The notes under the pieces were generated by a model. It saw only the letters and a program-made list of their open reading frames with translations. It did not search any database and was not told where the DNA came from. From Candidatus Omnitrophota bacterium (GTDB lineage: Bacteria > Omnitrophota > Gorgyraeia > Duberdicusellales > 4484-171), in the NCBI GenBank assembly GCA_003154195.1, contig PMCS01000024.1:28-64027 (forward strand): DNA of 64,000 bases. Direction: 5' to 3'. Of this stretch, positions 4,004 through 47,346 are shown piece after piece. Position numbers and translations under genes: made by a program. Positions within the stretch are counted from its first letter, which is position 1; every line of letters starts with the position of its first letter.

Positions 4004-4092
4004 AGCAATTGCGTTGATTTCAATCCGTTTGCTGACAGTGTTAATTTAAGAAAACCGGTTTTTTTCTTACAGTATGCCGCGTATTACGGAAA

Positions 4093-4773
4093 TTAATTTA
4101 CAGGATAAGGGGAACAGTAGGAAACTTTCCCACCGGAATCAGCAGCGGTACAATTAAGCTGTTGGTTACCCGGCAATAAGCCTATCGCGTATGGCTTGAC
4201 TGCTCCAGTACCATAGTGTTTATGCCGGTCGGTTAGTTCATCTACTGCGCTAAAAGTAGTACCGGCCGCGTTGCAATCAGCAACCACAGGCACATTGAGG
4301 CCGGGGCTAGCGGCCCAGCTGCGGTATTGAGCGAGAGTAAGCGGGCCGCCAGCTGGCTTGTATACCCCATAGGAGTTTTCTCCCGCCGCCGCCTTCGGGC
4401 ACTTTAGATTTTGCCACCGCGCTCCGGCAAATTTACTTAGCCAGGTCTGGGCATAGGCAAGGCCGCTTTCCTGGATATCTACAATAAAATAAGCCAATTT
4501 AACCTGCCAGCCGGCTTTTTTCATGACTCTGTCCCAGGCGTAGCGGATATCTTTATCGGGAAGCTCACTCAAAGTAGCGGGCATCAGGTTTTTTTCCAGG
4601 GTATAAGCATCTACCGCTCCCGTAAGCACTTCCAGGTTGGTTTTGCAGACTTTGCTCTTGGAATCCTCCAGGACGTTCTGGTAGGTCGGATAAGCGATGG
4701 TAGCCAGCACTCCGACGATGATAAGCGAGATGACTATCTCGACAAGGGTAAAATTATTTCTTTTTTTTCTCAT
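4093..4773 (-). CDS. prepilin-type N-terminal cleavage/methylation domain protein (type IV pilin / pseudopilin-like)
   Basis: N-terminus MRKKRNNFTLVEIVISLIIVGVLATIA (class III signal: FTLVE plus hydrophobic helix). Confidence 0.7.
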   Translation of the reverse strand: MRKKRNNFTLVEIVISLIIVGVLATIAYPTYQNVLEDSKSKVCKTNLEVLTGAVDAYTLEKNLMPATLSELPDKDIRYAWDRVMKKAGWQVKLAYFIVDIQESGLAYAQTWLSKFAGARWQNLKCPKAAAGENSYGVYKPAGGPLTLAQYRSWAASPGLNVPVVADCNAAGTTFSAVDELTDRHKHYGTGAVKPYAIGLLPGNQQLNCTAADSGGKVSYCSPYPVN

Positions 4774-4835
4774 TTTTGCCTCCGTGGTAGAAATAGCTTA
4801 AGATACTTTTGATACTACTTTTTGTTATCACTACC

Positions 4836-4873
4836 CCTGATTAATTATACCATTTATCCGCAAAAGAAACCAA
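4836..4873 (-). promoter_or_regulatory. candidate sigma70 promoter (extended -10 TGgTATAAT) for the pseudopilin gene
   Basis: minus strand reads ggataaaTGgTATAATtaatc; a weak -35-like TTGGTT lies 17-18 nt upstream; SD GGAGG lies just before the ATG at 4773. Confidence 0.3.
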
Positions 4874-4880
4874 AGGATAT

Positions 4881-5633
4881 TTAAGTAATTTGGTTTTCCA
4901 ATTCACCGATGCCTTCAATTTCTACTTTCGCATGGTCTCCTCTTTTCATCGGCCCTACACCGGGCGGCGTTCCGGTGGCGATAACGTCGCCGGGCAGGAT
5001 GGTCATTATTTTCGAAATAAAGGAAATAATGAACGGCGCAGAAAAGATGAAATTTTTCGTAGAAGAGTCTTGTTTGATTTCTTCATTAAGATAAAGGCGG
5101 ATATTCAAATCAGCAGGGTTAATCTTTGTTTCCAACCACGGCCCCAGCGGGCAAAATGTATCGAAGGATTTGGCTCTTGTCCACTGGCCGTCTTTTCTTT
5201 GTAAATCGCGCGCGGTTACGTCATTAAGGCAAGTATAGCCCAGGACATATCCGGCGTAATCTTTTTCTTTTATCTTCCGGCCTTTCTTTTTTATAACGAT
5301 GCCCAGCTCCGCTTCGTAGTCGAGCTGTCCGACGCCGCCAGGGTAAACGATTTTTTCTTCCGGCCCGATCATGGCCGTCGGCGGTTTTAAAAAAATAATC
5401 GGTTCGTCCGGTATTTTCATGCCCAATTCCGCGGCGTGGTCTTTATAATTTAACCCTACGCAGATTATCTTGGAGGGCGTTGCCGGGGCGAGAAGTTTTA
5501 CTTTATCCCGTGGTATTTCTGTTGAGGTCAATATTATCTTTTTATATGGTTCCCCCGTAATCAGGGTGATAGTTTCCTTTTTGACAATCCCCCAATTTAT
5601 TTGTTTTTTATATAGGAACCTGGCGATTTTCAT
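4881..5633 (-). CDS. fumarylacetoacetate hydrolase (FAH) family protein
   Basis: FAH-family motifs (LNYKDHAAELG, YEAELGIVI, TPPGVGP). Confidence 0.7.
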   Translation of the reverse strand: MKIARFLYKKQINWGIVKKETITLITGEPYKKIILTSTEIPRDKVKLLAPATPSKIICVGLNYKDHAAELGMKIPDEPIIFLKPPTAMIGPEEKIVYPGGVGQLDYEAELGIVIKKKGRKIKEKDYAGYVLGYTCLNDVTARDLQRKDGQWTRAKSFDTFCPLGPWLETKINPADLNIRLYLNEEIKQDSSTKNFIFSAPFIISFISKIMTILPGDVIATGTPPGVGPMKRGDHAKVEIEGIGELENQIT

Positions 5634-5732
5634 TTTTATATAATTTATCGAATTGCGCTGTAGGGGCGAGGCACGCCCCGCCCTCTACGATTTATGATTT
5701 GTTTAATTTTTTTACCCAATTAGGGATATCGA

Positions 5733-7145
5733 TTATTTTTTAGAGGGTCGGGCATGCCCGACCCCTACAGGATTGCGCAAGGTATACAAATTACTTACCG
5801 TTGCCACGAATTCGGGAAATGATTTATCGATACAGCTCAAGTCGTCAATCGATGAACCGGATCCGCAGGCCATGGCGAAAACAATCATGCTCATCGCAGT
5901 GCGATGGTCATGATGGCTGACGAAATGAGCCCCGTCATAGCTCTCTTTACCTTTAACAATCATCATCCAATCGTCTTTACCGTCCGGTTTATCGGCAATA
6001 TCCACGCCGGCGCCTCGCAAATTAGAGACCATTGACGCGATACGGTCGGTTTCTTTAATCCGCAGTTCTTTTATCCCCTCGATCCGGGTTATCCCCTGGG
6101 CGAACGCCGCGGCGACGCAAAGAATGGGAATTTCATCAATCATCAGAGGAATCTCCTCCCGCTTAACCGTCGCCCCTTTAAGCCGGGAAGCTTCCGCGAT
6201 AATGTCGGCATACGGTTCGTAGGCCGCTCGTTTATTGACAATTTTTATTTTTGCGCCCATGCGTTTTAAAACATTAAGCAAACCGCAGCGTGTAGGATTA
6301 ATGTTGACATTTTTAATTGTGACCGCTGATTTTTTTAGAATCAGCGCCAGAACAATTAAAAATGCCGCCGAGGAAAAATCCGCCGGGATAAATATCTTAC
6401 CGGGTGTACACAGTTTTTTTACCGGCCGGCAGGTTACCTTACGCCCGGCGATTTTTATTTTAGCTTTAAAAAGTTTCAGCATCCGCTCAGTATGGTCACG
6501 CGAATGGAATGGCTCGATGACTGTTGTTTTTTTATCGGCATAGAGCGACGCGAATAGGATTGCCGATTTTACCTGGGCGCTGGCTATTTCGAGTTTAAAT
6601 GTTTTTCCTTTCAAGTGTTTAACCGGCCGTATTACCAGCGGCGGAAAAATATTATCTTTAAACGGCTCGCCTCGCGGCGTCCGCCTCGGCGAGCCTTCGG
6701 CGAGACGGGAAGCCGAGGGCGAGCCGGAGATATTGGCTCCCATCTTGCGCAGTGGTTCGACAATTCGTTTCATCGGCCGCCGCGCCAGTGACGGCTCGGC
6801 ATCAAAAAGAACGTCGAATTTTTGTCCGGCGAGTATTCCGCTTAAAATTCTCATTGTCGTGCCGGATTCCCTGGCGTAAAGATTTACCGTAGGAACGGGG
6901 GGCAAATAGAGCATCCCCTTTCCTTCGACGATAAGCGTATTGTCGTCGCGCAACTCTGCTGAAATGCCCAGGCGTTTCATGCAATCAAGGGTAGCCAGGG
7001 TGTCGTTGCTGCGTAAAAATGGCTTGATCACGGTTTTGCCCTTGCACAAGGATGCCATGAGCAGAGCCCGGTGGGAGATGGATTTATCCGGGGGTATTGT
7101 AACCGTTGTTTTTATTCCTGAGAGGGGTTTGATTATAAAGGCCAT
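5733..7145 (-). CDS. aroA: 3-phosphoshikimate 1-carboxyvinyltransferase (EPSP synthase) with a 22-aa in-frame GC-rich insertion
   Basis: N-terminal KSISHRALLMASL and overall AroA architecture; about 470 aa; extra segment GSPSASRLAEGSPRRTPRGEPF at nt 6659-6725. Confidence 0.8.
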   Translation of the reverse strand: MAFIIKPLSGIKTTVTIPPDKSISHRALLMASLCKGKTVIKPFLRSNDTLATLDCMKRLGISAELRDDNTLIVEGKGMLYLPPVPTVNLYARESGTTMRILSGILAGQKFDVLFDAEPSLARRPMKRIVEPLRKMGANISGSPSASRLAEGSPRRTPRGEPFKDNIFPPLVIRPVKHLKGKTFKLEIASAQVKSAILFASLYADKKTTVIEPFHSRDHTERMLKLFKAKIKIAGRKVTCRPVKKLCTPGKIFIPADFSSAAFLIVLALILKKSAVTIKNVNINPTRCGLLNVLKRMGAKIKIVNKRAAYEPYADIIAEASRLKGATVKREEIPLMIDEIPILCVAAAFAQGITRIEGIKELRIKETDRIASMVSNLRGAGVDIADKPDGKDDWMMIVKGKESYDGAHFVSHHDHRTAMSMIVFAMACGSGSSIDDLSCIDKSFPEFVATVSNLYTLRNPVGVGHARPSKK

Positions 7146-7461
7146 GGAAGCTATTTTACAGGAAGTAGTGAAATTTGGGAAGGGAAAAATAAAACCAAAA
7201 GCTTTACCACTAAGTCACTAAAACACGAAGACACGAATAATATAAAAACTCATTTTATATTGTTCATTGACCATTTAACGTTTTAAATTTTTAAAAATGA
7301 TAAATGACCAACGTCCAATGATATTTTTAAAATGAATTTGTTGTTTTTCTTTGTGTACCTTGTGTCTTGGTGGTACGATTTAGGTTTTAATTTTTTAGTT
7401 TTTAAAATCCTTTTCTTTACCTGTGATCATCGGCATCATCTAATCAGCGATCATCCGCGTT

Positions 7462-10400
7462 TTACGGTAATGACGCAAACTGTGCTAACGATATAATCTG
7501 CTTCATCGAAACAATCCGAAACGTCAGCCGGTCGAAGAAATCCGGCCCGACTGCCGCAAATTCCATCTTCTGCGATGTGGGGCTGGAGGCCACCTGAATA
7601 CCGGACATCTTGATACCGCCGGGGGAACTGGTAACTTCCACAGGTTTTTCTGCTCCGGCGTTGCTGCCTGCAGCCGTAATCACAAACTTCGGCTGAGTGC
7701 CTGAAGCATCAAGAGTTATCTCCGAGCCGGGATACTCTCCCTTAAGCTGCGCGATATATTCCTGAGCCTTAACTAAATCAAATGTAGACACTCCTCCTTT
7801 AAGAGTAACAGCAATCTCGTAACGGCCGGCAAGGGCCTCTTCAAACTCCTGGTTGGGACCGAAAACGCTCGTTGCGCCGTTAGCTCCGATGATACCTAAA
7901 AAAGTATGGATTGCATCATTTATCCTAATCGCATCAAGAACCGTCAACTTTTGAGCGGGGCTGGCAGCTGAGGTTTCTTCAACTATATTGATTATTCCTT
8001 GCCAATTACCCGCGGTAAGATGCTGAGCGTCTAAGGAATCTATCCTTACTTCTCTTGACTCTTTGCCTGCCGTCAAAGCTTCAAGATTGTTTCGATTGAT
8101 GATTAACGTCCGGTTGCCACCGATGCGCAAAACGTCAATTTCCTGCGGTAGGTCAGCTAAACGCATAATCCACGCGCCATAGCGCATAGCGTTAGAAAGC
8201 CCCTGATAAATTGTTTTCGCCGCGGCGGCAGAAATATCTTTTTCCACATATAAGGTCTTACCGTCTCTTTGTGCATCAACATTTTTATATTCCACTTGGT
8301 TATCGCGGGAGTTTTCAACAATAAGAACTATCTCTCGCCAATTACCCGCGTCAAGATACTGAGCGGATAAGGAATCTATCCTTACCTCTCTCGACTCTTT
8401 GCTTGTCGCCAAAACTTCGAGATTGTTTCGATTGATGATTAACGTCCGGTTGTCACCGATGCGCAAAACGTCAATTTCCTGCGGTAGGTCAGCTAAACGC
8501 ATAATCCACGCGCCATAGCGCATAGCGTTAGAAAGCCCCTGATAAATTGTTTTCGCCGCTTCGCCGGCAATAGCACTTTCGACACCTAAAGTCTTTCCGT
8601 CTTTTTCGACATCAACATCTCGATAGTGAACCGGGCTGGCGGCGCCGGCTGCGGTTTTTGTTTTTCCTGCCGTCAGTTGTCTTATGCCCGATTTTCCCTG
8701 TCCGGCACTGGCCGAACGGGAAACTCTCTTCCCAATCGCATTAATCCGCCAGAGTTCGCCTTCTACCGCAATAGACCATCCCCGCGCTTCAAGAGCTTGG
8801 CGGAAAGGCTCGAGGTCACTCAGTGAATTCATCCTAAAGCCTTCGTCGTTATAGACCACATCCCGGCTATCCGTGATAATAAAACTACTTCTATGGAGAC
8901 GGATAAAACTCACCAGACGCGCAAAGGTAAGATCCTTTCCTACGCCGAGCGCGTTTATCGCCTCGGCTAAGACGCTAAGAAACCTGGCAAAATACTTAAA
9001 TTCGTTGATACGCACTATACTTGGTGAACCTCTCCTGGCGTCGGCGCCGGAAAAAGAACGACCGCGCTTAGCTGCTACCCCGGTCGTAAAAAGTATCTCC
9101 CTGGGAGTGGCGCGATCCCCCGTCCCAAGGTTATGGATATCATCCACCGGGCTGGCGCTGGAGACGGATGCAAGGTCTTCACGTGCTTCTCGGGAAGGTT
9201 GCCATACGTCAATCGCTCTAATGGCATCAGCCAATTGCTTTTGGTAAGTTGTTGTTCCTACTGTTTTGAATATGGCGGCGTTGGCTAAAATTCTTGCCTC
9301 GTCCTGGTATAGTCGGCGTATCAAAGAAAGCCGCGACTGGAATTCTAAAACCAGTGGTCGATGCTGCGTCGCATATTCTCCCGCGGATAAGGCAGTTATT
9401 TTACCAAGCGGCATTATCACAAAAGAGCTCGGGACGCCTTTGTAGTATTCACTTTCTATCGTTGCCATATCCTCTGAGGCCATTCTTCTAACCATCTCAA
9501 TGCCTGCAGTCAAAGCCTTTTCTGGCATAATTCCCCTGGGTAAAACTACATCTACCGGCTGGCCAAAATAAGCCGCAAGGCTTTGGGTATCATAATCTTG
9601 CGCTGATTCTAAAACCGTTATTCTGTCCCCTGATGCTAAAAAAGCAAAGCGCGGCAAGCCGACCGATAACGCTGCGGCTATGCCAAATTTAAAAAGGTCG
9701 GGCCGGTTGGCAAGAAACTCTTCTTTGCTGGAGGCACCTATCCCAGCAACGATCTGCGAAACGGCTGCTTCTTTTATCGTATCGATGGCACTCTCGGAAT
9801 ATCGTCCATCAGCGCGTATCATTTCCCCTGAAGCAGCGATTTGTTCTTGTATTGCTGCTCCGATATTTTCAAAAAGTTTTTTACGGCTGGGAAGATCTGT
9901 TTTGTCTATTCTTGAAGTCGTGTTGACCGGGCTGGCGTTGGTCGAATCCCATAATTTCTTGATAATCATCGCGGCAAGCGTAACTGTGTCTTTTTTATCG
10001 CTATTGACTACCCCGTTCATGGTCAAGCGTTTTAACCATTTAAACATTGGCTCTTTAAATTGGTCTAAGCCTAAAACCATCACCCAGGTAACGGGATTGC
10101 TTTCTAAAAAAGCGGTAGGAACAGCATCGCTCCAATGACGGGGGACTCCTATAGTCCAGCCGCCTCGATGTAACGACATAATCAAATCCCTGCCAAAGGT
10201 TTGTTCTAAAAGGTCGTCCTTTTGGTCTTGTCGCAAAGCAAACCTTAACGCGTACTCGGAAATAAAGACTTTTTTCACTCTTGATGTTGCAATCGGCGGC
10301 AGGAGCTTTACCATTTCCCCGGCCGCGTCATAATTAGCACCCTGGGTTTCTCTCATTGCCGTCTTTATCGCTCTAAGTTCGTCTTTTATTTCTCTCAAGG

Positions 10401-14283: not shown

Positions 14284-14406
14284 GGCAAGTTGGTTTGGTC
14301 CACAGATTTCTCAGATTTATCGGATTGAAGATTGGATAGATTAATGCAATATTTTAAAAAAATTAATCTTTTTTTTGAATCCGCAGAAATCTGCGTAATC
14401 TGTGGA

Positions 14407-20304: not shown

Positions 20305-20490
20305 ACTTAGCTCCTGGGTAATGGTAAGGGTAACGATGCCCGTATAGGCTAAAGACTTGGTCAGGGTAAAGGTAAGGATGCCAGTATAGGTTAGGGTTAA
20401 GGTAAAGGTTTTAAGATTAGTATCAGCCCTAACCCTTGCCGTAACCCAAACTGGCTTCGTTACCCTAGCCCTAGCCTTAACCGATTTTTA
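20305..20490. repeat. about 170-bp imperfect palindromic repeat (GGTAAGG/GGTTAGG-rich arm versus CCCTAACC/CCTTAACC-rich arm), copy 1
   Basis: reverse complement of 20400-20490 matches 33440-33530 almost base for base. Confidence 0.8.
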
Positions 20491-21285
20491 CTAAGAATAT
20501 ATTTTAGCTATCTCGTCGCCGCGTTTGCGCGCTGCGTCGATTGCCGCGGCGATTATTTTATCCAAATGTTTCGCTTTGAACACTTTGCGGCCGGCTTCGG
20601 TCATCCCTTTTCTGGAGGTCACCTCATCGGCTAAAACGCCAAAATCTTTGCCGCTGATCACGGAAAGTTTCGCCGCGCCAAGAAACACTTGGTTTATCAT
20701 TGCCTTAGCGGTTTCCCGATCAAAGCCCGCCTTCACGGCGCCCTGGTAGATACTGTTCATGATATGGTAAACAAAACCCGGACCACATCCGGCGATTGCC
20801 GTAGCCTTGTTAATCGAGCGCTCATCGATTAATGCGGTTTTTCCTACAGTATTAAATATTTCCCGCGCCAGGCCGATGTCGTTGGCTGAGGCTAACCTGC
20901 CCTTACAGATAAACGATATAGATTCGCCGACACGCGCGGCAAGGTTCGGCATTACCCGTATCACTTTAACCCCGGTTAAATGTTTCTCAAAAAATTTTAT
21001 GTTTAACCCGGCGGCGATGGTGATGAACAAGGGTTTTTTGGCGATAAAAGCATTCTTATGGGTTTCGATAAAAGTCTTAATGTCTTGCGGCTTGATCGCT
21101 AATATCGTAACGTCGCTGTTTTTAATGAGTTCAGCGGGATTTTTTACCTGGTAGAGGTTTCTTTGCGTTTCGGTTTTCGGCGCGATATCGTAGAAACAAA
21201 CTTTACCCTTGTTTAATGCGGCCAGAGCCGTACCAATCGCTTTACCCATATTACCGAACCCGATAATTCCTATATTCTCAATCAT
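20491..21285 (-). CDS. proC: pyrroline-5-carboxylate reductase
   Basis: N-terminus IGIIGFGNMGKAI plus the ProC family C-terminal domain. Confidence 0.85.
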   Translation of the reverse strand: MIENIGIIGFGNMGKAIGTALAALNKGKVCFYDIAPKTETQRNLYQVKNPAELIKNSDVTILAIKPQDIKTFIETHKNAFIAKKPLFITIAAGLNIKFFEKHLTGVKVIRVMPNLAARVGESISFICKGRLASANDIGLAREIFNTVGKTALIDERSINKATAIAGCGPGFVYHIMNSIYQGAVKAGFDRETAKAMINQVFLGAAKLSVISGKDFGVLADEVTSRKGMTEAGRKVFKAKHLDKIIAAAIDAARKRGDEIAKIYS

Positions 21286-21412
21286 ATTTAAGGTGGTGAA
21301 GCCTTATAGTTTTCTGTAATAGTTGGGGCTTCACCCTGAGACAGAAATCATTCATCCACCGCATCACCTTTTGACTACGCGCAGCGCAGGCGTGAATTTC
21401 TGTCGAATGGGT

Positions 21413-21441
21413 AAGATAGCATAAAATATTCGGGGTGTCAA
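21413..21441 (-). promoter_or_regulatory. sigma70-like promoter TTGACA-N17-TATCTT upstream of proC
   Basis: minus strand reads cTTGACAccccgaatattttatgcTATCTTAc; 24 of 31 nt identical to the element at 26026-26054. Confidence 0.45.
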
Positions 21442-21463
21442 GAATTAGCGGGAAAAGAGGGTT

Positions 21464-23251
21464 TTAGGAAGGTTTTATCGTTACCGGGCCGCCTACGGCT
21501 TGCAGCTTCATGGCTTTATTGATTCTCAATGGTTTGTTTTCTCCGGCGCCGTAGACACCGGTTTTTATCGCTACCGTGCCGTAGCTGTTGACTTGGGTTA
21601 CTCCCTGGCTGACCTTGGATAAGGGGTGCTCAGGGGAACCGTCAGCGGTTCCGGAATTGGCTTTATCTACGAATATTTTATTATAGTTTACTCCTGACGA
21701 ATATACTGTTCCTTGATAAGAAAGGAATTCGCTTTTTGTCACTACGATATCATAATCGTCGGATTGAGTTATGATAAGGGAAAATACAGCGTTGCCGGAC
21801 GCGTCGGTAGTAGCCCGCCAGTAATCGCTTGGTGCGTTAACGGTAGAAATGGTAACCATCGCTTCTTCGATGGGGTTATTTTGTTCATCGGTGACGCTAA
21901 TGGTGATGTTTTCATTGGTGTTTATCTTTAAGGAATCAGGCTGCGAGACTTTCAGGTTTTTGGGTACCCCGGTCCAGAATCGGGTAGCGGGATCGCCGAA
22001 CCAGTGCCACTCTTCGAAAGTTATGTTTCCGCCATTCCACAGGCGCGATTTTCCATATAATTTTGCGTAGTTTAGCGCATCTCCCATCCCCCGCGGTGTT
22101 TCAGGGCGGGGATATAACGTATATTCCGAATATTCCGGCCAGAGGTAGTTCATCAAACCCCAGGTTAGAAAGCCGCAGTCAAAAGTTACCGCTACGCGTG
22201 AAGAGGCTACAATGCCGATTGCCCCGCCGTGGGGATTCCTTTCCAGGGCTTCACTAAAACAAGTATCGGCCGGGGTACCGGGGGGATCCATTCCATTGGG
22301 AGTATGAATTAAATCGAAAGCGCCGGTTAAACAAGTCATGCTCCATATCATCGGAAGTTTGTTCCCGTTGGTTAAATTGACGACATCGCTGGTGGAATAA
22401 GGTAGCGAAATAAGCCCCATGGTGCTGCCATGGCCGCTAACGTAGGTCAGCAGGGAACAGCCGGAGTTTATCGCCGATTGGATATCCGTGTTCTTACCGT
22501 CCCAGGCAAATTGGGGTTTTTTAAGGAAGTCCGGGATAGTACCGTTCATACTTCCTGCGGGGCCGGTGTCATTACCCATGTAAATTGGAAAAATGGTTTT
22601 CCATGTCTGGGGTGTAAGAGCTGGGTCGCAGTAATAAATACGCTTAAGGGAATAATTTTTCCGATTTTGCAAAAAGATTGCCACTTCTTCGCTGGTAAGG
22701 GCGCGCAAGTCGTCGAGATTGTCATGATCTTCATCCAGATAGGTCGAAACACAAGCGGCAGTAGTATAGAATGAATCGTCGTTTATTTTTTTAGTTTCAT
22801 AATCAATGATATCATTGACTCTTTTTACGGCCTGTTCGGGGGTGACAATGGAAATCCTGCCGTAAGCCAGGTCAGGGAAATAATCTTGACCGTCGAGGGT
22901 TGCGTAATAGAGATCGGTGGCTACTTGATCAGCCATATAATTAGTGGGGACAAACTGGGTGTCCCCGATGATTAAAAGATAGGCTGGTGCTGGATCCCAG
23001 GTATCATAGGCGTTTTGAACGTAGGCTTTTATCGCATCAGTGGTAGTACCGGTTTCTTCGGTGGTAGCGACTTTACTGATAAGACCGGTTTTTTTTCTCC
23101 AAGCGGCCAGAGTATCCGCTGCGGGCTTAAACTGTTTGTCGCAGACAATCAGATAGTCCGCGCCTTGCGCCAGCACACTGGGCGTAAATAAAGCGGAAAA
23201 TAAAATTATAAGCGGTAAAAATAAAATATTTTTTGGGAACGCTATCTTCAT
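21464..23251 (-). CDS. secreted C25 (gingipain-like) cysteine peptidase family protein
   Basis: signal peptide; YLLIIGDTQFVPT motif; GHGS catalytic-His context and a conserved Cys (SMTCLTGAFD); C-terminal beta-rich domains. Confidence 0.5.
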   Translation of the reverse strand: MKIAFPKNILFLPLIILFSALFTPSVLAQGADYLIVCDKQFKPAADTLAAWRKKTGLISKVATTEETGTTTDAIKAYVQNAYDTWDPAPAYLLIIGDTQFVPTNYMADQVATDLYYATLDGQDYFPDLAYGRISIVTPEQAVKRVNDIIDYETKKINDDSFYTTAACVSTYLDEDHDNLDDLRALTSEEVAIFLQNRKNYSLKRIYYCDPALTPQTWKTIFPIYMGNDTGPAGSMNGTIPDFLKKPQFAWDGKNTDIQSAINSGCSLLTYVSGHGSTMGLISLPYSTSDVVNLTNGNKLPMIWSMTCLTGAFDLIHTPNGMDPPGTPADTCFSEALERNPHGGAIGIVASSRVAVTFDCGFLTWGLMNYLWPEYSEYTLYPRPETPRGMGDALNYAKLYGKSRLWNGGNITFEEWHWFGDPATRFWTGVPKNLKVSQPDSLKINTNENITISVTDEQNNPIEEAMVTISTVNAPSDYWRATTDASGNAVFSLIITQSDDYDIVVTKSEFLSYQGTVYSSGVNYNKIFVDKANSGTADGSPEHPLSKVSQGVTQVNSYGTVAIKTGVYGAGENKPLRINKAMKLQAVGGPVTIKPS

Positions 23252-24027
23252 CCTCCGGTTTCTCCTTGTTTTTCCCGGTCTTTAAGGATAACTTCACCGT
23301 TAATCGCCATGCGGCGCATGGTTTCGTCGGTTTGTTTATTTTTTAATCGCCGTGGTATGCCTTGATGCTTGCCTGAAAAAGACACTCTTACCGTAAGGTC
23401 GGGATAGACCGACAATATCCGCTGTTTGGGATTGTAACGATAAGGGAAAAGCCAGACAAATGTGCATTCCTGCCCGCGGATTTTAGCCGGCGGATCAACT
23501 ACGACAAAGCTATCCGGATAGTCGGCGTCCCGGGAATAGGTTTCCGCGTGTTTAACGAATTTTTGTTTCGATTCTTTGCCGTCGGCCAACGGCGGTGGCT
23601 GGAGGGGCGAGATATCGATGTTATCGTAGGCCAAGGGCTTCCCCGGATCGATCTCTAATTTTATTTTTGTGCCGTTGGGAATGAGGATGAAATTACCGAA
23701 TACCGGTAAATTCGGTTTGCTTATTTCCAGCATCCCGGAGTCCGGAGCGGTGATGGTCGTATAAATTAGGCCATCGTCCATGATTTGGTTTTCTAAATAC
23801 ATTCCCGGAAGAGACACTCTAAGGGTAATCCCGTCGGCGGAAGAATCAAGGATAGTCGCGCCTTTGCCTTCAGGTTTATCTTTATTGCTGTTATCGGCCG
23901 ATTCATCCAAGGGCCTTAATTGTACCCAACGACGGTTATTTTCGGCATGGGCCGAAGAAATCAATAAGATCGTTGAGGCAATACCAACGACAGCAATCAG
24001 GGTTGTTTTTAAGTTCATGTTTTTCAT
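23248..24027 (-). CDS. secreted hypothetical protein (possible propeptide/accessory partner of the C25 peptidase)
   Basis: signal peptide; 4-nt overlap with the downstream peptidase gene. Confidence 0.4.
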   Translation of the reverse strand: MKNMNLKTTLIAVVGIASTILLISSAHAENNRRWVQLRPLDESADNSNKDKPEGKGATILDSSADGITLRVSLPGMYLENQIMDDGLIYTTITAPDSGMLEISKPNLPVFGNFILIPNGTKIKLEIDPGKPLAYDNIDISPLQPPPLADGKESKQKFVKHAETYSRDADYPDSFVVVDPPAKIRGQECTFVWLFPYRYNPKQRILSVYPDLTVRVSFSGKHQGIPRRLKNKQTDETMRRMAINGEVILKDREKQGETGG

Positions 24028-24039
24028 TAAACCGCCGGC

Positions 24040-25881
24040 TTATTGCAGGGTTACCAGTATTTTAACCAGCCCCTTGCCTTTGGCTAAACCGGTTAGCGCT
24101 TTGCCCAATATCGCCCCCCGGGCTTTGTTGTGGTTGGTGACTTTACGGGCGTGACCAGCCGTATTGGATGTAGTCAATAAATCACCCGGCTCGATCGCTC
24201 CGTAATCGGCATCGGCGTAGCAAAATACTCTTCCCACCAGGGCCACGGGTTCTCCGGCGTCACCCCTGTCTTTCTGGGACATTTGCAGTCCGGGTTTGAT
24301 TCCGCCCGCGCCGCTTAAAACGCCGGCAACAGTTTTATCGTATTCCTTAGCGCAAAGTTTTAGATTTTCGCTGTTTGCCGGGTCTATACAGACAACCATG
24401 CCGGGCTCAGCCTTGGGGCCTTCGATTTTGAATGGCTCGGCAACATCCGCTCCGCCGGTAATAGTGATTACCGAAGTTTTAGTCTCGCCGCTGACCTCCA
24501 GGGCGACAGAAGGCTGGCTTGTGCCGATTCCTACTTTGCCGCTGGCGATATAAACATTTGAGCCGGATTGCTTCCATGCTCCCCCGGCAGTGGTTTGTAT
24601 CGAGCCGTCGGGAAATTTAATTCCTCCATTTCCAACATCATTTGATATTATGATTTGCCCTCTCATCGTAAGCGGAGCGCTGATCGTGACACCGGCGTAG
24701 GTAAAGACTGTGCCGGTTGGTTTATCGACCGCCCAACCACATAAGATACTGGGATCGCCGGTAGTAAGTACTGAACCATCGGGGAATTTTACCCCTCCGT
24801 TGGTGGTTTCAATAACGCCGTTAACGGTGAGCTTAGAAGAAGGGTTGACTGTCCCGATCCCGACATTGCCGCCGGCCTGGATAGCAAGGACATCACTCCC
24901 CGCAGCGGTTTTAAATCTTAAATCATTGCCGCTTAAATATTCATACCACTTCAGCGCGTTGGCGGCATTGGCAAAAGCGAGGTTATTGGCATCCGCCCTA
25001 AGCTTCAGACTACCGACAACGTCCAGCCTTGTATCCGGGGTTGTCGTTCCGATACCGATATTTCCGCCTTTTTTTAATATTAGCCCTTGTCCTGAGATGC
25101 CGGAATCGCCGTAATGATATAAACCAAGAATAGAATTGCCACCGGTAAAGTATTGGTAGAAGATCCCCCCGGTTTCATTAACGGCTTCAGCTCTCCCAAG
25201 GTCTATTGTCAAATAATTCGCGTTCGCCAATGAAGGCTTGAAAAGTCTGATCATCCCCGCTGAACTATCTGCTCCCGGTTGCGAAACTTCCAGCGCACCC
25301 CCCGGCGTCGCCGTACCAATACCGACGTTACCGCCGCGGTAAGAAATATTACCCGAAGAGATGGCCCAGGGATTATTGTTGCTCGCCGCCGTAGCCTGGG
25401 TTGTGCCGTCGGGGAATTTAATCCCGCCGTTGGTAGTTTCGATTATGCCCGCTACGGTAAGTTTCGAAGTCGGGGCTGTTGTCCCGATACCGACATTACC
25501 GGAGAAATCCGCGTTGCCGCCAACGGATAATTTGTTCGTCGGAGCGGTTTCCCCAATCCCGACATTGCCGCTCGACTTTAGAGTGATTGCGTAAATATTT
25601 GACGGAGATAAAAACAGCAAGTCATTATTGCTGAAATACTCCCGCCACATTATATTGTTGGCGGCATTAGCAAAAATAATTCCTTGCGAATCGGAGCGTA
25701 GTTTAATACCGCCGGCAATATCCAGCTTTGCCTCCGGAGTGGTTGTTCCTATGCCGACATTGCCGCCGGTATAATAAATCTTACCGGTTTGTTCCAGCCA
25801 TCCGGCCCAGGCATAGGTGCTGATCGTTGTGGAGAAAGCCGCCGTTATTGCCAATCGTGTCAGCCAAATATTTTTTTTCAT
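24040..25881 (-). CDS. secreted Gly-rich repeat protein (GNVGIGTTxPxxKLxV repeats; tail-fibre-like) with a distinct C-terminal domain
   Basis: signal peptide; at least 8 repeats of the GGNVGIGTTTP motif; the C-terminal 150 aa are non-repetitive. Confidence 0.55.
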   Translation of the reverse strand: MKKNIWLTRLAITAAFSTTISTYAWAGWLEQTGKIYYTGGNVGIGTTTPEAKLDIAGGIKLRSDSQGIIFANAANNIMWREYFSNNDLLFLSPSNIYAITLKSSGNVGIGETAPTNKLSVGGNADFSGNVGIGTTAPTSKLTVAGIIETTNGGIKFPDGTTQATAASNNNPWAISSGNISYRGGNVGIGTATPGGALEVSQPGADSSAGMIRLFKPSLANANYLTIDLGRAEAVNETGGIFYQYFTGGNSILGLYHYGDSGISGQGLILKKGGNIGIGTTTPDTRLDVVGSLKLRADANNLAFANAANALKWYEYLSGNDLRFKTAAGSDVLAIQAGGNVGIGTVNPSSKLTVNGVIETTNGGVKFPDGSVLTTGDPSILCGWAVDKPTGTVFTYAGVTISAPLTMRGQIIISNDVGNGGIKFPDGSIQTTAGGAWKQSGSNVYIASGKVGIGTSQPSVALEVSGETKTSVITITGGADVAEPFKIEGPKAEPGMVVCIDPANSENLKLCAKEYDKTVAGVLSGAGGIKPGLQMSQKDRGDAGEPVALVGRVFCYADADYGAIEPGDLLTTSNTAGHARKVTNHNKARGAILGKALTGLAKGKGLVKILVTLQ

Positions 25882-26025
25882 AGCCCCTCCTTGTGCGGTT
25901 TAACCGGAAAACTTTTTATAGTGTTCGAGTATTAATATATAACATGCCAAGTTGTTGGGAACAAGGGGTAGGCATTAGGTAACTGAAAACGATTACAGCT
26001 GCCGGTCAATAAATTCCTTGCTCAT

Positions 26026-26054
26026 AAGATAGTATGAAATATTTGGGGTTCAAG
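26026..26054 (-). promoter_or_regulatory. sigma70-like promoter TTGAAC-N17-TATCTT upstream of the secreted-protein cluster
   Basis: minus strand reads cTTGAACcccaaatatttcatacTATCTTAt; paralogous to the element at 21413-21441. Confidence 0.4.
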
Positions 26055-26090
26055 AATTAGGAGGGTTGATGGAGTATACGAAAAACCAGG

Positions 26091-26591
26091 TCAGTATAGT
26101 TTTTTGCCCGGCAACTTATTCCAGTCACTGAACAACTGGTTACATTCACCAAGCAATAATCCGGGGACGATTTTTATCTTTATTTTTGCCAGCACCTTTA
26201 AACGGACATTACTGATCTTCATCTCATTAAAACCGATTTTACCGGCATCGGCAATACCGGTTCCATAAACAATAGTTCCTATCCTCGCCCAGTGGATTGC
26301 GCTAAAGCACATCGGACAAGGCTCGGTAGTAGAATAGATTATCGAACCGGAAAGGTCGAAGGTTTTGTTTTTGCGCGAAGCGATACGAATGGCATTTATC
26401 TCCGCGTGGCAGGTGGCGTCGTTTTTTAATACTGTATTGCGCGCCAGGGCAATGATTTTTCCGTCCTTGACAACGCAGGCGCCAAAAGGGCCGCCGTCCA
26501 TGCGCTTAAGGTTTTTCCTTGCTTCCTCAATCGCCCGGCGCATGTATTCGGGGTTTAATATATTCTTGCCGAGATTAGACTTGTATTTCAT
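26091..26591 (-). CDS. CMP/dCMP-type zinc deaminase (TadA / guanine deaminase-like)
   Basis: CHAEINAI and PCPMC zinc-binding motifs. Confidence 0.75.
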   Translation of the reverse strand: MKYKSNLGKNILNPEYMRRAIEEARKNLKRMDGGPFGACVVKDGKIIALARNTVLKNDATCHAEINAIRIASRKNKTFDLSGSIIYSTTEPCPMCFSAIHWARIGTIVYGTGIADAGKIGFNEMKISNVRLKVLAKIKIKIVPGLLLGECNQLFSDWNKLPGKKLY

Positions 26592-26630
26592 GCAGTAACC
26601 ACGCTAAAAAATTATACTATAAAGATAAAA

Positions 26631-26850
26631 AAATAAAACCTAAACCTACCACTAAAGCACCAAAATAAAAACAAAACCAAAATATTTACCACCAAGGCAC
26701 CAAGAGCACCAAGAAGATTAGTAGTTGCATTCTTTTCTTTGTGCCCTTTGTGGTAAGTTTTAGGTTTTATTTATATTCTATAGTTTTGACCTATAGTTTT
26801 TACTTTATATTTTTGTGTTTTGGTGGTAAATTTTTAAGTTTTTTTTAGTC
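26631..26850. repeat. four copies of the CTTGGTGGTAAAnTTTTGGTTTT intergenic element arranged as two nested inverted pairs
   Basis: reverse-complement-form copies at 26631-26665 and 26668-26718; plus-form copies at 26735-26775 and 26800-26848. Confidence 0.8.
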
Positions 26851-30046: not shown

Positions 30047-30260
30047 TGCTATAATACCTTGTCAGCATATTTATTGAATTATTTTATTTTCATCCGCGAA
30101 ACGGATGTCTTTTATTTTTTACCCATTCGGCAGAAAGCCGCGTCCGTGAGGGCGCGGATGAATGCTTTCTGCCTCAGGGTGAAGCTCCAGGGGAGCTGAA
30201 TCCTGAATAACAAGAAACCACCACCGTAAGGTGGTGGAGCTTCACGAAGTAAAAAATAAT
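30047..30260 (+). promoter_or_regulatory. extended -10 promoter (TGcTATAAT) plus an about 200-nt highly structured leader of the ROK kinase gene (candidate cis-regulatory RNA)
   Basis: TGCTATAAT at 30047-30055; small hairpin plus U-tract at 30100-30130; nested 10-bp stems at 30139-30170 and 30176-30245, the latter with a competing local pairing and overlapping the only GGAG before the ATG. Confidence 0.35.
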
Positions 30261-31586: not shown

Positions 31587-31620
31587 TAATAAGAAAGTAA
31601 AATGAAATACAAAAACTTTT

Positions 31621-31798
31621 GTCCACAGATTGCTCAGATTTTTATGGCTTAAGAAAAAGATTGGGATATTTATAGATATAAAATAATCCCGCCGTATTTT
31701 GGCGGGATTATCCCGGTAGGCCACCGGCGTGAGCCGGTGGTAGTTCACTTTTTAAATCTGTTTAATCCCAATCCTATTAATCTGAGAAATCTGTGGAA
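31621..31798. repeat. inverted pair of GTCCACAGATT-nCnCAGATTT elements flanking two GC-rich hairpins
   Basis: left copy at 31621-31650; right reverse-complement copy at 31755-31798; internal hairpins atcccgccgtattttggcgggat and ccaccggcgtgagccggtgg. Confidence 0.75.
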
Positions 31799-31820
31799 AA
31801 ATTTTTTGGTTGGTTTTTAA

Positions 31821-33349: not shown

Positions 33350-33612
33350 TGGTTAGGGCTATGGCTAGGCTCTCCTTCGCCCTTCGAGCTTTGGAAAAGT
33401 CTCGCCGAAGCCATAGCGAAGGCGGAAAGCCGGTAATAATAATCAGCTAGGGCTAGGGTAACGAAGCCAGTTTGGGTTACGGTAAAGGTTAGGGCTGATA
33501 CTAATCTTAAAACCTTTACCTTTACCTTAACCTATACTGGCATCCTTACCTTTACCCTGACCAAGTCTTTAACCGATACCGGCATCGTTACCCTTACCCT
33601 AGCCGTTTTTAA
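33350..33612. repeat. about 170-bp imperfect palindromic repeat (copy 2, inverted relative to copy 1) plus additional flanking hairpins
   Basis: 33440-33612 matches the reverse complement of 20305-20490. Confidence 0.8.
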
Positions 33613-38367: not shown

Positions 38368-39581
38368 ATTAAAACCTGAATATAAACCAAAAACCTACCA
38401 CCAAGACACTAAGGCACAAAAAACAAAGACTAAAAATAAATTTTCACCACAGAGAACACAGAGCGCACAGAGAAAACAGAACCAAGAAACTTTTCCCCAC
38501 CCGCTCGCTTCGCTCGCTGGAGAGCACGAAGCCCACGAAGGGAAAACAAATTTTTACCGCAAAGGCGGTGTGTAGCGGAGCGAAGCGTAACCTCCCCAAA
38601 AGGGGACAAAGTGCGCAAGGTAAATAATTAAGTACGTGTCCCCGGAACTTCGAACTTAAAATAAGTTTTAATGGTTTTTCATGGAATCTCTTCCGAATAT
38701 TAAAAAAAAGGGATAGTTAAATTGTCTTGTCAAAATTATGAATTTTCCATCCTGAACGGACGGCCCAGACATTAGTTCAATTTCATCTTTATCTTCGATA
38801 TAATAAAAAGCCATACCGAAGATGTCATTCCTATTGGCAAGTTCTTCGGGTATAGGAATTTTTATTTTTATTATATCGTCAGCATATCCGGATTGGCTTG
38901 TGTCTTTACTTATGGGGGAAACTTTAATTACACTGACTTTTCCCCCGTAAGTAACTTTAACTTTAGGATGCTCGAAATAAGCCGCCGCTACGCTTACACT
39001 TATTTTTTGTTCTGTTTTTAATGCATTTTGAGGAAATTCTATTTCTACGCCGTCAAGAGGGTAGTCGGAATTCGGAACAGTTATGAGACCGCCTTTAGGG
39101 CCTATTGTTTGTGAGCATATTTCAACAAAATTAGATTCATACGTTATAATTTTAGCTTGAGCGCAAAATGTTGATCCGGGAAGCATTAATGTAATAAGCC
39201 CAAGATAAAAGATATTAAGGAATTTTTTCACGAAAACATCCTTTTTTATTTTCCTCTGACAAAAAAATCATACGACAATCCTATTTTTTAATATTAGTTG
39301 AAAGTCTTTAGCGGCCGGGGTGTCTTCTAGTTAATAATAACGCGAAAAAGTATTTGTCTTTATCTTTGGAAATCTGCGTAATCTGTGGACAAAAATATTT
39401 TGTATTTCTTTGTACCTTAGCAGTCAGAAATCATTCTTCCAGTTTTTTCATTCCTCTTCCTTATCTCTTGTTTTTTGCTCTTTTTCTTTTGGTATCTCTC
39501 TGCGAACTCTGTGCGCTCTGTGGTGAAAATTTTATTTTTTGTGCCTTGGTAGTAAATTTTTTGGTTTATCTTCTTTTGTTT
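38368..39581. mobile_element. 1.2-kb cassette with about 100-bp imperfect terminal inverted repeats inserted between pdxA and rsmA/ksgA (MITE-like; carries one secreted-protein gene)
   Basis: left inverted repeat 38372-38492 and right inverted repeat 39460-39581 are reverse complements (shared ...attttcaccacagag...cgcacagag... and ttaccaccaaggcacaaaaaa cores); both abut the flanking genes directly. Confidence 0.55.
38668..39231 (-). CDS. hypothetical secreted protein (cassette passenger gene)
   Basis: N-terminal signal peptide MKKFLNIFYLGLITLMLPGSTFCAQA; no recognisable domain. Confidence 0.5.
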   Translation of the reverse strand: MKKFLNIFYLGLITLMLPGSTFCAQAKIITYESNFVEICSQTIGPKGGLITVPNSDYPLDGVEIEFPQNALKTEQKISVSVAAAYFEHPKVKVTYGGKVSVIKVSPISKDTSQSGYADDIIKIKIPIPEELANRNDIFGMAFYYIEDKDEIELMSGPSVQDGKFIILTRQFNYPFFLIFGRDSMKNH

Positions 39582-47158: not shown

Positions 47159-47210
47159 GTTTTTCCTCCTTAGCTGAATTCCAGTATATAAAACTAAAAC
47201 AAAAAACTTA

Positions 47211-47338: not shown

Positions 47339-47346
47339 AAAAAGTT

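Follow-up and report, generated by a model that had tools for sequence, protein, structure and literature searches.

A three-gene operon appears to have been inserted between a tadA-like deaminase gene and proC in an uncultured bacterium from peat soil, probably one of the Planctomycetota. It would encode a Sec-exported fibre, prodomain and C25 peptidase and be transcribed from a promoter of the sigma-70 type, a near duplicate of the one that serves proC just downstream. We assign a probability of roughly 0.55 to the whole reading, in which promoter reuse, an autochaperoned fibre, a split C25 zymogen and a tail-coupled peptidase are combined. One core promoter (about -45 to -5) would serve two unrelated transcription units, the operon having most likely come to lie between proC and the original promoter, whether through duplication or through one crossover at the promoter, a scenario that we draw from the arrangement alone. 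The fibre would be helped to fold by a C-terminal autochaperone that resembles domain D4 of phi29 gp12 and probably cuts itself off between GGA and DVAE, and the prodomain, secreted separately, would work in trans, both assisting folding and inhibiting the enzyme. The peptidase would be a cargo or partner of the fibre rather than its maturase; its tail is, at a guess, most likely what ties it to the fibre or to some shared route of export or attachment. The features are listed in Table 1 with their positions in the window, by which we mean the whole 64,000-nucleotide stretch of DNA that was analysed.

Table 1. Coordinates of the operon, its promoter copies and its neighbours in the window.
Feature	Position	Strand	Description
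proC (pyrroline-5-carboxylate reductase)	20491..21285	-	downstream of promoter copy 1
proC 5' leader	21286..21411	-	two hairpins; begins where the promoter-module likeness ends
Promoter copy 1	21412..21448	-	CTAATTCTTGACACCCCGAATATTTTATGCTATCTTA; TTGACA-17-TATCTT with TG before the -10 box
C25 cysteine peptidase without prodomain, 595 aa	21464..23251	-	signal peptide 1-29; Ig-like domain ~445-520
Peptidase C-terminal tail, ~70 aa, residues 521-595	21467..21691	-	same tail on unrelated fibre-adjacent peptidases
Stand-alone C25 prodomain protein, 259 aa	23248..24027	-	own signal peptide; PF08126
Fibre gene, 613 aa	24040..25881	-	signal peptide; seven GNVGIGT-type repeats
Fibre C-terminal domain, residues 456-613	24043..24516	-	predicted beta-tulip-type autochaperone
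Promoter copy 2	26025..26060	-	CTAATTCTTGAACCCCAAATATTTCATACTATCTTA; TTGAAC-16-TATCTT
tadA-like deaminase gene	26091..26591	-	upstream neighbour of promoter copy 2

The gene order is tadA, the three-gene cluster and proC, with the fibre, small-protein and peptidase genes on one strand, separated by gaps of 12 nt and -4 nt, and all three products carrying signal peptides. The composition of the cluster is not anomalous. The two promoter sites lie on the minus strand where an earlier note on this DNA had placed them and, as it had claimed, are paralogous. They form direct repeats that bracket the cluster exactly, copy 1 starting 15 nt past the peptidase stop codon (127-163 nt upstream of the proC ATG) and copy 2 starting 30 nt past the tadA stop codon (144-179 nt upstream of the fibre ATG). 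When aligned with one gap they are identical at 33 of 37 positions (CTAATTCTTGA(C)ACCCCRAATATTTYATRCTATCTTA), the changes comprising three transitions and one 1-nt indel, and over an extended block at 35 of 42. The identity of 24/31 given in the note was not reproduced, as the ungapped count is 23/31 when the copies are anchored on the -10 box and only 12/31 when they are anchored at the left end; the 17-nt spacer given there for both copies holds for the proC copy, whereas that of the fibre copy is 16 nt.

The likeness of the copies spans the spacer and the CTAATTC flank and stops sharply on both sides, the outer flanks being unrelated; the likeness of the fibre locus to the proC locus stops at TATCTTA. 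Right after this motif, the proC leader opens (with ACCCATTC) a second, independent likeness, to the leader of a ROK-family gene at 30121-30230 on the plus strand. Because the promoter likeness ends where the leader likeness starts, the two paralogies abut at the expected transcription start.

The 31-bp motif is not the generic promoter that it might have been, having two copies in 64 kb and chance matches only in the sequence collections. A mismatch-tolerant scan of the 64 kb found no third copy, and 100 shuffles of the window yielded 0 matches to the module. The core pattern, with 19 specified bases, matched only 3 times in the reference genomes (596 Gb) and 10 times in JGI metagenomes, neither scan having returned contigs of the source organism itself; since the -35 part is missing from every one of these 3 and 10 matches, we take them to be chance matches. 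Copy 1 is the top sigma-70 match of the region (10/12, with TG). Copy 2 agrees with the sigma-70 consensus at just 8/12 and was not listed by the sigma-70 promoter scan, and a second promoter-like site lies closer to the fibre gene (25934-25961). Elsewhere in the window, promoter-like sites are TTGACA/TATAAT pairs of the ordinary type that lack the spacer and flanks of the module, and the presence of these canonical hexamers in other intergenic regions indicates that the organism uses sigma-70-type promoters. No terminator-like site was found on the coding strand in either the tadA-operon or the operon-proC gap, and read-through could therefore make either promoter copy dispensable.

The arrangement resembles the putative mobile promoters, or promoter reuse, described by Nijveen, Matus-Garcia and van Passel (2012; PMC3575422), in which near-identical upstream sequences (89% identity here) precede unrelated genes of one genome whose coding regions have no homology. 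The block here measures 37-42 nt, compared with the 50-nt criterion for putative mobile promoters, and its copies lie next to each other on either side of one insertion, whereas putative mobile promoters are dispersed.

Selection rather than descent could have kept the two copies alike if, much as the earlier note had proposed, the spacer and upstream flank were the site of a specific regulator or alternative sigma factor that co-regulates proC and the operon. The sharply bounded conservation beyond the hexamers speaks for such a site, as do the substitutions, all three of which are transitions, and a palindrome in the spacer (AATATT or AAATATTT); moreover, fibre-peptidase pairs elsewhere often adjoin an ECF sigma factor and a Ser/Thr kinase, implying that the module is under dedicated control there. 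However, the window has no ECF sigma factor or kinase homologue, the hexamers look like those of an ordinary sigma-70 promoter, the site lacks extended dyad symmetry, and common descent explains two copies in 64 kb, arranged as direct repeats around one insertion, without any factor, all of which leaves a dedicated regulator possible but unlikely. We also doubt that the repeats are insertion scars akin to attL and attR, produced by a single crossover or by site-specific recombination at ~40 bp with a circular or linear fragment and leaving perhaps one working copy or neither. Exact bracketing of three genes by direct repeats so near the two stop codons would fit such an event, recombination between the copies would give back tadA-promoter-proC, and members of the family to which the cluster belongs have quite different neighbours in other genomes. 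Against this, neither an integrase nor a transposase nor any other mobility gene was found in or beside the segment, its composition is not atypical, and the edges of the repeat fall at those of a core promoter and at the point where the proC leader, conserved in its own right, begins, which would be unexpected for a random recombination site; the four changes between the copies imply that the event was not recent. No empty site, in the form of a relative without the cluster, was found, all related contigs being at least 99.7% identical to the window.

Within the cluster, we found the three ORFs as the earlier note had described them, together with the YLLIIGD, GHGS and SMTC motifs of the peptidase and the 4-nt overlap (ATGA) of the small-protein and peptidase genes. 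The peptidase belongs, as had been proposed, to family C25 (PF01364, Pfam E 1.6e-65) and has the catalytic dyad, its His274 and Cys307 aligning with His211 and Cys244 of RgpB in an alignment that did not extend to the specificity-pocket residues. The small secreted protein, for which a propeptide or inhibitor role had been suggested, is a C25 propeptide homologue (PF08126, E 1.1e-15; RgpB pro-domain 4IEF_A, E 1.5e-4) that ends in KQGETGG, where fused homologues have their interdomain linker. PF08126 and PF01364 are fused in 55 of the 64 listed relatives of the peptidase. Among the best matches to the small protein, most have lengths of 800-3000 aa with the domain near the N-terminus, and the short relatives that were inspected are truncated or anomalous ends of fused proteins rather than clear stand-alone genes. 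One relative, P0203 (893 aa), is colinear with the small protein and peptidase, and its linker passes from GETGG directly into CDNLIICD, at the place where the window has GETGG, a stop codon, a new signal peptide and GADYLIVCD. The sequence recurs unchanged in at least 7 independent assemblies. Judged from the homologies, the second and third genes together encode a C25 zymogen of the gingipain family that is divided at the linker joining prodomain to catalytic domain.

The catalytic domain with an Ig-like domain after it is homologous to that of RgpB and Kgp of Porphyromonas gingivalis (C25; PDB 4IEF, 1CVR, 4RBM, 5MUN), whose inhibitory pro-domain has its homologue in the small protein. Here, unlike in the gingipains, pro-domain and peptidase are separate genes, each with its signal peptide, and the cluster peptidase lacks the T9SS C-terminal domain and the haemagglutinin/adhesin domains, ending in an unrelated tail of ~70 aa. 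In streptococci, Spi, which is homologous to the SpeB prosegment and has a gene of its own, offers another comparison, as do the staphostatins and potempins, all being small proteins that are propeptide- or inhibitor-like or -related and that lie, as here, beside a cysteine peptidase. Spi and the staphostatins act as safeguards in the cytoplasm, and their peptidase retains its own prodomain, unlike the cluster peptidase, which has none and whose small partner would be exported alongside it.

The first gene encodes a fibre-like repeat protein, in agreement with the earlier note: it matches the Bdellovibrio Bd2133 fibre 8OND (E 1.3e-11) and PHROG tail-fibre families, and has at least 3258 relatives. 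Its repeats start at residues 40, 105, 128, 184, 273, 338 and 448, and two super-repeats of ~210 aa can be made out in it. On sequence grounds, we classify it as a trimeric fibre of the kind found in phage tail fibres and in the MATs, the mosaic adhesive trimeric fibres of Bdellovibrio bacteriovorus, for example Bd2133 (PMC10769870). Like Bd2133 (PDB 8OND), it is a Sec-exported bacterial fibre rather than a phage fibre and has the GNVGIGTxxPxxKLxV repeats of the stalk, and like the MATs it joins a variable body to a distinct C-terminal module. It differs in its length (613 aa versus ~1000 for MATs), in lacking their conserved N-terminal domain of ~130 aa, as its repeats begin at residue 40, in having a C-terminus that is neither S74 nor any described MAT tip fold, and in being paired with a peptidase gene.

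One and the same domain of 158 aa forms the C-terminus of all 119 fibre relatives examined, with 40-60% identity. The idea that this C-terminus is a Peptidase_S74 did not hold, as the fibre has no Pfam match to that family and its C-terminal domain resembles the phi29 gp12 autochaperone. Foldseek with the AF2 model of the domain (pLDDT 92) retrieved phage decoration proteins and phi29 gp12 (3suc, TMq 0.55; 3gqh), structures with the beta-tulip fold that characterizes the D4 autochaperone of gp12 (bioRxiv 10.1101/216911). In hhalign, A-D479-V-A-E482-P-F of the fibre fell on S691-D692-F-A-E695-Y-F of gp12 (E 1e-4, probability 57%), the mature form of which has 691 as its last residue (PMC6542822), and both the Asp and the Glu of this D-x-x-E are invariant in an alignment of 23 C-terminal domains. 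Peptidase_G2 matched the domain at E 0.02, just for one divergent family member, and a PDB profile search with the domain found nothing. The predicted structure looks like the self-cleaving autochaperone of gp12, with a weak link at the sequence level, and analogy places a putative self-cleavage site between A478 and D479, with Glu482, in ITGG-A-D-V-A-E-P-F. As in phi29 gp12 (D4; MEROPS G2 / PF11962; 3SUC, 3GQH), the domain occupies the extreme C-terminus of a fibre that would be trimeric and beta-helical, the predicted fold agrees, and the motif TGG...(S/A)-D-x-A-E-x-F around the gp12 cleavage site (between S691 and D692) aligns with the fibre; the sequence likeness is under family thresholds, and cleavage of the fibre is putative. 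ATP-dependent release has been described for gp12. The cluster fibre, unlike gp12, is bacterial and extracytoplasmic, and release of that kind could therefore not apply to it.

In a gene-context sample of seven fibre loci, a peptidase gene follows the fibre gene within two genes and on the same strand at six, with a different catalytic family at each (C25, C1, S8, astacin, reprolysin and trypsin-like). Where fibre and peptidase genes are direct neighbours, 6-21 nt separate them; one gene stands between the two in the window and in L038. At L037, beta-helix and RHS proteins are encoded downstream of the fibre, with no peptidase. The same uncurated tail of ~70 residues ends the peptidase in 5/5 peptidase-bearing loci with DNA and, among 1064 ORFs in 158 kb of fibre loci, is present only in genes directly after the fibre gene. 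The model of this tail has pLDDT <50; comparison with the T9SS CTD gave no likeness and no PF18962 match, and the PorU scores of the peptidase fall well short of the cut-offs. These observations argue for a fibre paired with interchangeable peptidases that have one tail in common.

The earlier note had proposed a surface fibre with its processing protease. Both the fibre and the C25 peptidase stand, but the processing role is weakened, because the fibre appears to carry a self-cleaving domain and because six unrelated catalytic families are paired with such fibres. A maturation protease, acting as Arg-gingipain does on the fimbrilin precursors of Porphyromonas, would suit three tightly linked genes of one orientation whose products all have signal peptides, and gingipain-dependent processing of type V pilins provides a precedent. 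We nonetheless find a maturase improbable, as the fibre family has its own conserved C-terminal domain with a gp12-like D-x-x-E, six catalytic types (reprolysin, subtilisin, astacin, papain-like or trypsin-like enzymes elsewhere) are unlikely for one task, and the feature that the paired peptidases have in common is the non-catalytic tail. It is equally hard to credit that the neighbouring fibre and peptidase have no functional relation and that the tail is just a common tag for the secretion or anchoring of exoproteins in these bacteria. The sample of seven loci and the replacement of the peptidase by beta-helix and RHS proteins at L037 leave some room for this, as does the fact that Planctomycetota encode many secreted hydrolases, but mere proximity fits poorly with six of seven same-strand peptidases and with a tail confined to genes directly after the fibre gene. 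The varied families and shared tail count against a protease devoted to processing the fibre and favour a fibre with an interchangeable enzyme module, as in the tail-coupled reading that we prefer. The T9SS cargo of Bacteroidota, which includes diverse proteases with a conserved C-terminal domain, provides an analogy only, in that one non-catalytic C-terminal module is likewise common to unrelated catalytic families; here, by comparison, the conserved partner is a fibre gene and the organisms are Planctomycetota-like.

The genes between 20.4 and 26.6 kb all lie on the minus strand, where a fibre gene, a small prodomain gene and a C25 peptidase gene stand between tadA and proC, with the last two genes of the cluster overlapping at an ATGA. 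We found no terminator-like site on the coding strand between tadA, the cluster and proC. Because the window sequence recurs at 99.7% identity or more in a Stordalen Mire MAG (GCA_003154645.1) and in several independent assemblies from ENA, JGI and Logan, its gene structure is not an assembly artefact. No foreign composition of the fibre–peptidase cluster was evident, and no empty tadA–proC junction was found among the contigs carrying the peptidase or proC, all of which were at least 99.7% identical to the window; clustering of proteins at 90% identity likewise returned just fragments of the same proteins. Where relatives of the fibre or of the small protein are named, they come chiefly from Phycisphaerae or Planctomycetota, and the source probably belongs to that phylum too. 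As detailed below, the cluster is a variant on known themes, pairing a C25 zymogen split in two with a MAT-like fibre that bears a putative gp12-type autochaperone, and it matters more than the pair of promoters that accompanies it.

Features of the fibre–peptidase region and of related or repeated elements elsewhere in the window
Feature	Position	Strand	Product
153-nt element downstream of proC	~20322-20474
proC	20491-21285	-	264 aa
proC leader	21286-21412	-
Promoter copy 1, upstream of proC	21412-21448	-
C25 peptidase	21464-23251	-	595 aa
Small protein (prodomain)	23248-24027	-	259 aa
Gly-rich repeat (fibre) protein	24040-25881	-	613 aa
Further promoter-like site	25934-25961
Promoter copy 2, upstream of fibre gene	26025-26060	-
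tadA-like deaminase	26091-26591	-	166 aa
Terminator-like hairpin	30086-30120	+
ROK-family gene leader	30121-30230	+
153-nt element, inverted copy	33446-33598
Repeat-protein ORF	52487-53311	-	274 aa
tRNA gene	53630-53704

The peptidase matched PF01364 over profile positions 1–373 of 374 (E = 1.6e-65, 222 bits, cut-off 23), and its His274 (in GHGS) and Cys307 (in SMTC) aligned with His211 and Cys244 of RgpB, so that the earlier note's assignment to the C25 peptidases is borne out by both the family match and the catalytic dyad. Across 51 homologues the Cys was invariant and the His at least 90% conserved. An AF2 model was confident for the catalytic and Ig-like domains; the ~70-residue C-terminal tail (residues 521–595) was left unmodelled for want of aligned homologues. 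A PorU-type T9SS sortase was rejected on its scores (70.7 bits to NF033707, with a cut-off of 420, and 35 bits to NF052324, with a cut-off of 450), and none of the three proteins gave a match to the T9SS CTD (PF18962).

The peptidase polypeptide carries no N-terminal Propeptide_C25 domain; the domain sits on the separate small protein, which matched PF08126 (E = 1.1e-15) as well as 4IEF_A, the pro-domain chain of RgpB (E = 1.5e-4). Homology upholds the proposal that the small protein is a propeptide partner of the enzyme, and the natural reading is a prodomain that would act in trans, in the periplasm or beyond. Such a split is unusual: the two domains share a single chain in 55 of the 64 listed peptidase relatives, and a full HMMER search seeded with the small protein returned 2263 relatives, the best of them mostly 800–3000 amino acids long with the domain near the N terminus. 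One fused homologue (P0203, 893 amino acids) is colinear with both window proteins, its residues 72–265 being 39% identical to the small protein and its residues 289–891 being 33% identical to the peptidase. Its linker, in which ...GNGETGG runs straight into CDNLIICD, corresponds to the ...KQGETGG-stop of the small protein followed by MKIAFPKNILFLPLIILFSALFTPSVLAQ-GADYLIVCD of the peptidase. The colinearity and the linker match together indicate that the zymogen was split exactly at the interdomain linker, the catalytic part having acquired a predicted signal peptide of its own. Among other candidates for naturally split prodomains, P0002 and P0210 were ended by contig ends or continued into a catalytic domain, and the remaining short prodomain matches that we inspected appear truncated or frameshifted. 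At this locus a gingipain-family zymogen has split naturally into two secreted products, prodomain and enzyme, which makes trans prodomain function directly testable. C25 genes can also duplicate locally: a metagenome contig (L032, positions 3061–8923) holds two tandem C25 genes with fused prodomains, of 1322 and 640 amino acids, that overlap by 29 nt.

The fibre protein has a signal peptide followed by seven GNVGIGT-type repeats and belongs to no Pfam family. It matched the stalk of Bd2133, a Bdellovibrio MAT fibre (8OND_A, E = 1.3e-11, aligning GNVGIGTTAPTSKLTVAG...GGIKFPDG) as well as PHROG tail-fibre families, matches that confirm its earlier description as fibre-like; its PDB matches were confined to the repeats. 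MAT fibres have a conserved beta-rich N-terminal domain of ~130 amino acids after the signal peptide (PMC10769870). The window protein shares homologous stalk repeats with these fibres but lacks their N-terminal domain, for which there is no room because the repeats begin at residue 40, with only the signal peptide before them. At the DNA level, Tandem Repeats Finder reported no tandem repeats in the fibre gene. The family is large (at least 3258 relatives), and all 119 of the 119 relatives examined end in the same ~158-amino-acid domain, at 40–60% identity. None was found in viral contigs, which argues that the family is chromosomal, not prophage-borne.

For this C-terminal domain (residues 456–613), the earlier note had named Peptidase_S74 as a profile to search. 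We found no match to PF13884 in the C-terminal 165 amino acids even at E ≤ 10, and no SDxxxK motif, and reject S74 on these grounds. Nor did a profile of the domain give anything significant when compared with PDB sequences. Its AF2 model (pLDDT 92) was matched by Foldseek, at moderate TM-scores, to phage capsid decoration proteins, many of them beta-tulip proteins, and to the C-terminal fragment of phi29 gp12 (3suc, TMq 0.55, rmsd 4.5; 3gqh_A, TMq 0.44), and the beta-tulip fold has been described for the D4 autochaperone of gp12 (bioRxiv 10.1101/216911). Comparison with gp12 residues 660–854 by hhalign gave a probability of 57% (E = 1.1e-4), with ITGG-A478-D479-V-A-E482-P-F of the window protein aligned to TVTGGNTW-S691-D692-F-A-E695-Y-F of gp12, in which residue 691 is the end of the mature protein (PMC6542822). 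Neither the aligned Asp nor the aligned Glu varies among 23 aligned sequences of the domain. A match to Peptidase_G2 (PF11962; E = 0.02, 14.7 bits, cut-off 25) was reached solely by a divergent family member; the window protein matched XM1_gp53_minor_capsid instead (E = 0.0035), likewise under the cut-off. With moderate confidence, we regard the domain as a putative gp12-type self-cleaving autochaperone, judging from its modelled fold and this alignment; such an assignment would mean that the phi29-type autochaperone is not confined to phage appendages but occurs also in a large family of bacterial fibres encoded on chromosomes.

The association of fibre and peptidase recurs in other genomes, and is the part of this work most worth pursuing. 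We took six further fibre-family loci, picked solely by how long the contig was, and found a peptidase downstream of the fibre in six of the seven loci, the C25 enzyme of the window included; the enzymes belong to six unrelated catalytic families.

Genes downstream of the fibre gene in the six further loci
Locus	Downstream gene(s)	Gap	Strand
L034	Reprolysin_5	17 nt	same as fibre
L035	Peptidase_S8	21 nt	same as fibre
L036	Astacin	6 nt	same as fibre
L037	NosD/beta-helix protein, then RHS protein	93 nt	same as fibre
L038	unknown 433-aa protein, then Peptidase_C1	51 nt	same as fibre
P0067 place	Trypsin_2-like protein, then S74 fibre	6 nt	same as fibre

These enzymes have their C-terminal tail in common, as seen in all five peptidase-bearing loci with DNA sequence. 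The ~70-residue tail of the window peptidase matched that of the C1 enzyme of L038 (E = 2e-9), and the tail of the L034 reprolysin matched L038 proteins at E = 6e-8 and 3e-6. A tail HMM built without the astacin and S8 tails detected both (E = 9e-6 and 1.4e-4, respectively) as its sole other matches among 1064 ORFs in 158 kb. The tail, which has no curated family, resembles at below-threshold scores the first ~40 residues of DUF1565/NosD beta-helix proteins; it is also present on the fused homologue P0203 and was not detected on any other C25 relative that we retrieved. The earlier note had cast the peptidase as the protease that processes the fibre. The finding of six unrelated peptidase families, five of them with a common tail, argues against a specific maturase of the fibre, and the pattern in the seven loci suggests a fibre accompanied by an interchangeable, tail-tagged enzyme module.

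A divergent ECF sigma factor gene and a Ser/Thr kinase gene lie directly upstream of the fibre gene in L036, L038 and the P0067 place, and kinase and ECF sigma genes lie nearby in L035; the window encodes no homologue of either protein. The fibre loci also have a third recurrent part (L035 9212–9661, L036 11018–11452, L038 9342–11141), consisting of small secreted proteins or N-terminal domains that have the motif Y-x-(I/V)-D-W-x-T-(I/V/L)-D-G-G-G in common (E = 1e-11 to 1e-16 by blastp), of which we found no counterpart in the window's cluster.

A bolder reading, to which we give a probability of only about 0.3, is that these loci encode a previously undescribed two-part surface module of Planctomycetota-like bacteria, a self-maturing trimeric fibre with an interchangeable, tailed secreted enzyme, of which the window would hold a rewired and split variant. 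The fibre part would consist of phage-type stalk repeats and the gp12-like autochaperone, and the enzyme part of a C25, C1, S8, astacin, reprolysin or trypsin-like peptidase, all ending in the same tail. This tail, which is similar to the opening rung of a beta-helix, might dock the enzyme on the fibre, or might act as a sorting signal that sends both to one export and attachment pathway, and the outcome would be enzyme-armed fibres directed against prey or polymeric substrates. Elsewhere the module would be under the control of the ECF sigma factor and Ser/Thr kinase encoded beside it; here it would instead have been rewired to a copied housekeeping-type promoter, with the C25 zymogen split into two genes. 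Protein export and surface biology are little understood in the Planctomycetota, and a docking or sorting role of the tail, if correct, would define a new means by which hydrolases are displayed or exported in that group.

The copied promoter is one of two sites that the earlier note had pointed out. Both sites are real, and two of the accompanying figures need correction: the ungapped, -10-anchored count is 23 of 31 positions, not 24, and the spacer of the fibre copy is 16 nt, not 17. Aligned with one gap, as CTAATTCTTGA(C)ACCCCRAATATTTYATRCTATCTTA, the two copies are identical at 33 of 37 positions (89% identity over 37 nt), and an extended block at 35 of 42. Copy 1 has a TG and matches sigma-70 at 10 of 12 positions, making it the top-ranked site of the region, in which a sigma-70 scan found 16 sites when 10.8 were expected by chance. 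Copy 2 (TTGAAC-16-TATCTT) matches at 8 of 12, under the scan threshold, and a further promoter-like site lies between it and the fibre gene. As direct repeats, the copies enclose exactly the three genes of the cluster: copy 2 starts 30 nt past the tadA stop codon and copy 1 starts 15 nt past that of the peptidase gene, such that recombination between them would restore a tadA–promoter–proC arrangement.

If the shared block were a generic promoter, its sequence should recur, and this explanation is ruled out by what the rest of the window contains. A mismatch-tolerant scan, permitting 12–13 mismatches, found no third copy in the 64 kb, and shuffles of the window gave 0 matches. The other intergenic regions of the window have plain TTGACA/TATAAT-type sites, frequently GGTATAAT, without the spacer, the CTAATTC flank or the unusual TATCTT -10 box of the module. 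A core pattern of 19 specified bases gave only chance matches, none with the -35 part, in the reference-genome and JGI metagenome collections, where contigs of the source species itself were not among the results. From the window and these collections, we therefore consider the module neither generic nor widespread. Nor did we see a promoter motif common to the upstream regions of fibre homologues in other genomes. The spacer may have been retained by a binding factor, or merely by recent common descent, with two copies being compared. Promoter reuse linked to the operon's insertion is the best reading of the pair; such events are known, and have been described as promoter reuse or putative mobile promoters (PMC3575422). 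Putative mobile promoters are defined by an identity of 80% or more across 50 nt or more in front of non-paralogous genes (PMC3575422); the module is 89% identical and its downstream genes are unrelated, but at 37 nt it is shorter than this definition. As promoter reuse, the duplication is a small, clean example that is unsurprising in itself and helps promoter annotation in an uncultured lineage.

The proC upstream region is a mosaic of two blocks: the promoter block occurs again at the fibre operon, and the leader block at a ROK-family gene. The bases right after TATCTTA (ACCCATTCGACAGAAA ... GGATGAATGATTTCTGTCTCAGGGTGAAGC ...) recur upstream of the ROK-family gene, and the two paralogous leaders have a 30-nt identical stretch in common, plus conserved ends. 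The promoter and leader blocks abut where transcription should start, which lends indirect support to the 37-nt block as the predicted core promoter, spanning about -45 to -5. The mosaic suggests that regulatory blocks have been reused in this genome. Both leaders fold better than their shuffles in RNAfold (z = -3.0 and -5.8), and the closing stem of a long hairpin carries two compensatory changes (GACAGAAAU/AUUUCUGUC versus GGCAGAAAG/CUUUCUGCC), making the leader a candidate cis-regulatory RNA common to two unrelated genes. The leaders had no Rfam match, no known RNA family was found in either intergenic region or elsewhere in the window save one tRNA, and the fibre leader was not unusually structured (z = +0.5). 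A terminator-like hairpin (CATCCGCGAAACGGATG, then a T-run) lies directly upstream of the ROK leader on the same strand, an order that would be odd if the leader were an attenuator.

Other repeats are scattered through the window. The 153-nt element directly downstream of proC has an inverted copy 13 kb off at 95% identity, and both copies sit within long imperfect palindromes of GGGTTA/GGCTAG-like words. Several families of long intergenic inverted repeats, made up of short recurring words (GTCCACAGATTACGCAGATT and TTACCACCAAGGCAC among them), occur at 4–6 sites each, typically around AT-rich cores (for example, at 14284–14406, 26592–26850, 31587–31820, 39232–39581 and 46924–47346), and may be terminators or REP-like elements. 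Finally, the repeat-protein ORF, which contains six tandem repeats of ~99 nt (33 amino acids), adjoins the tRNA gene.
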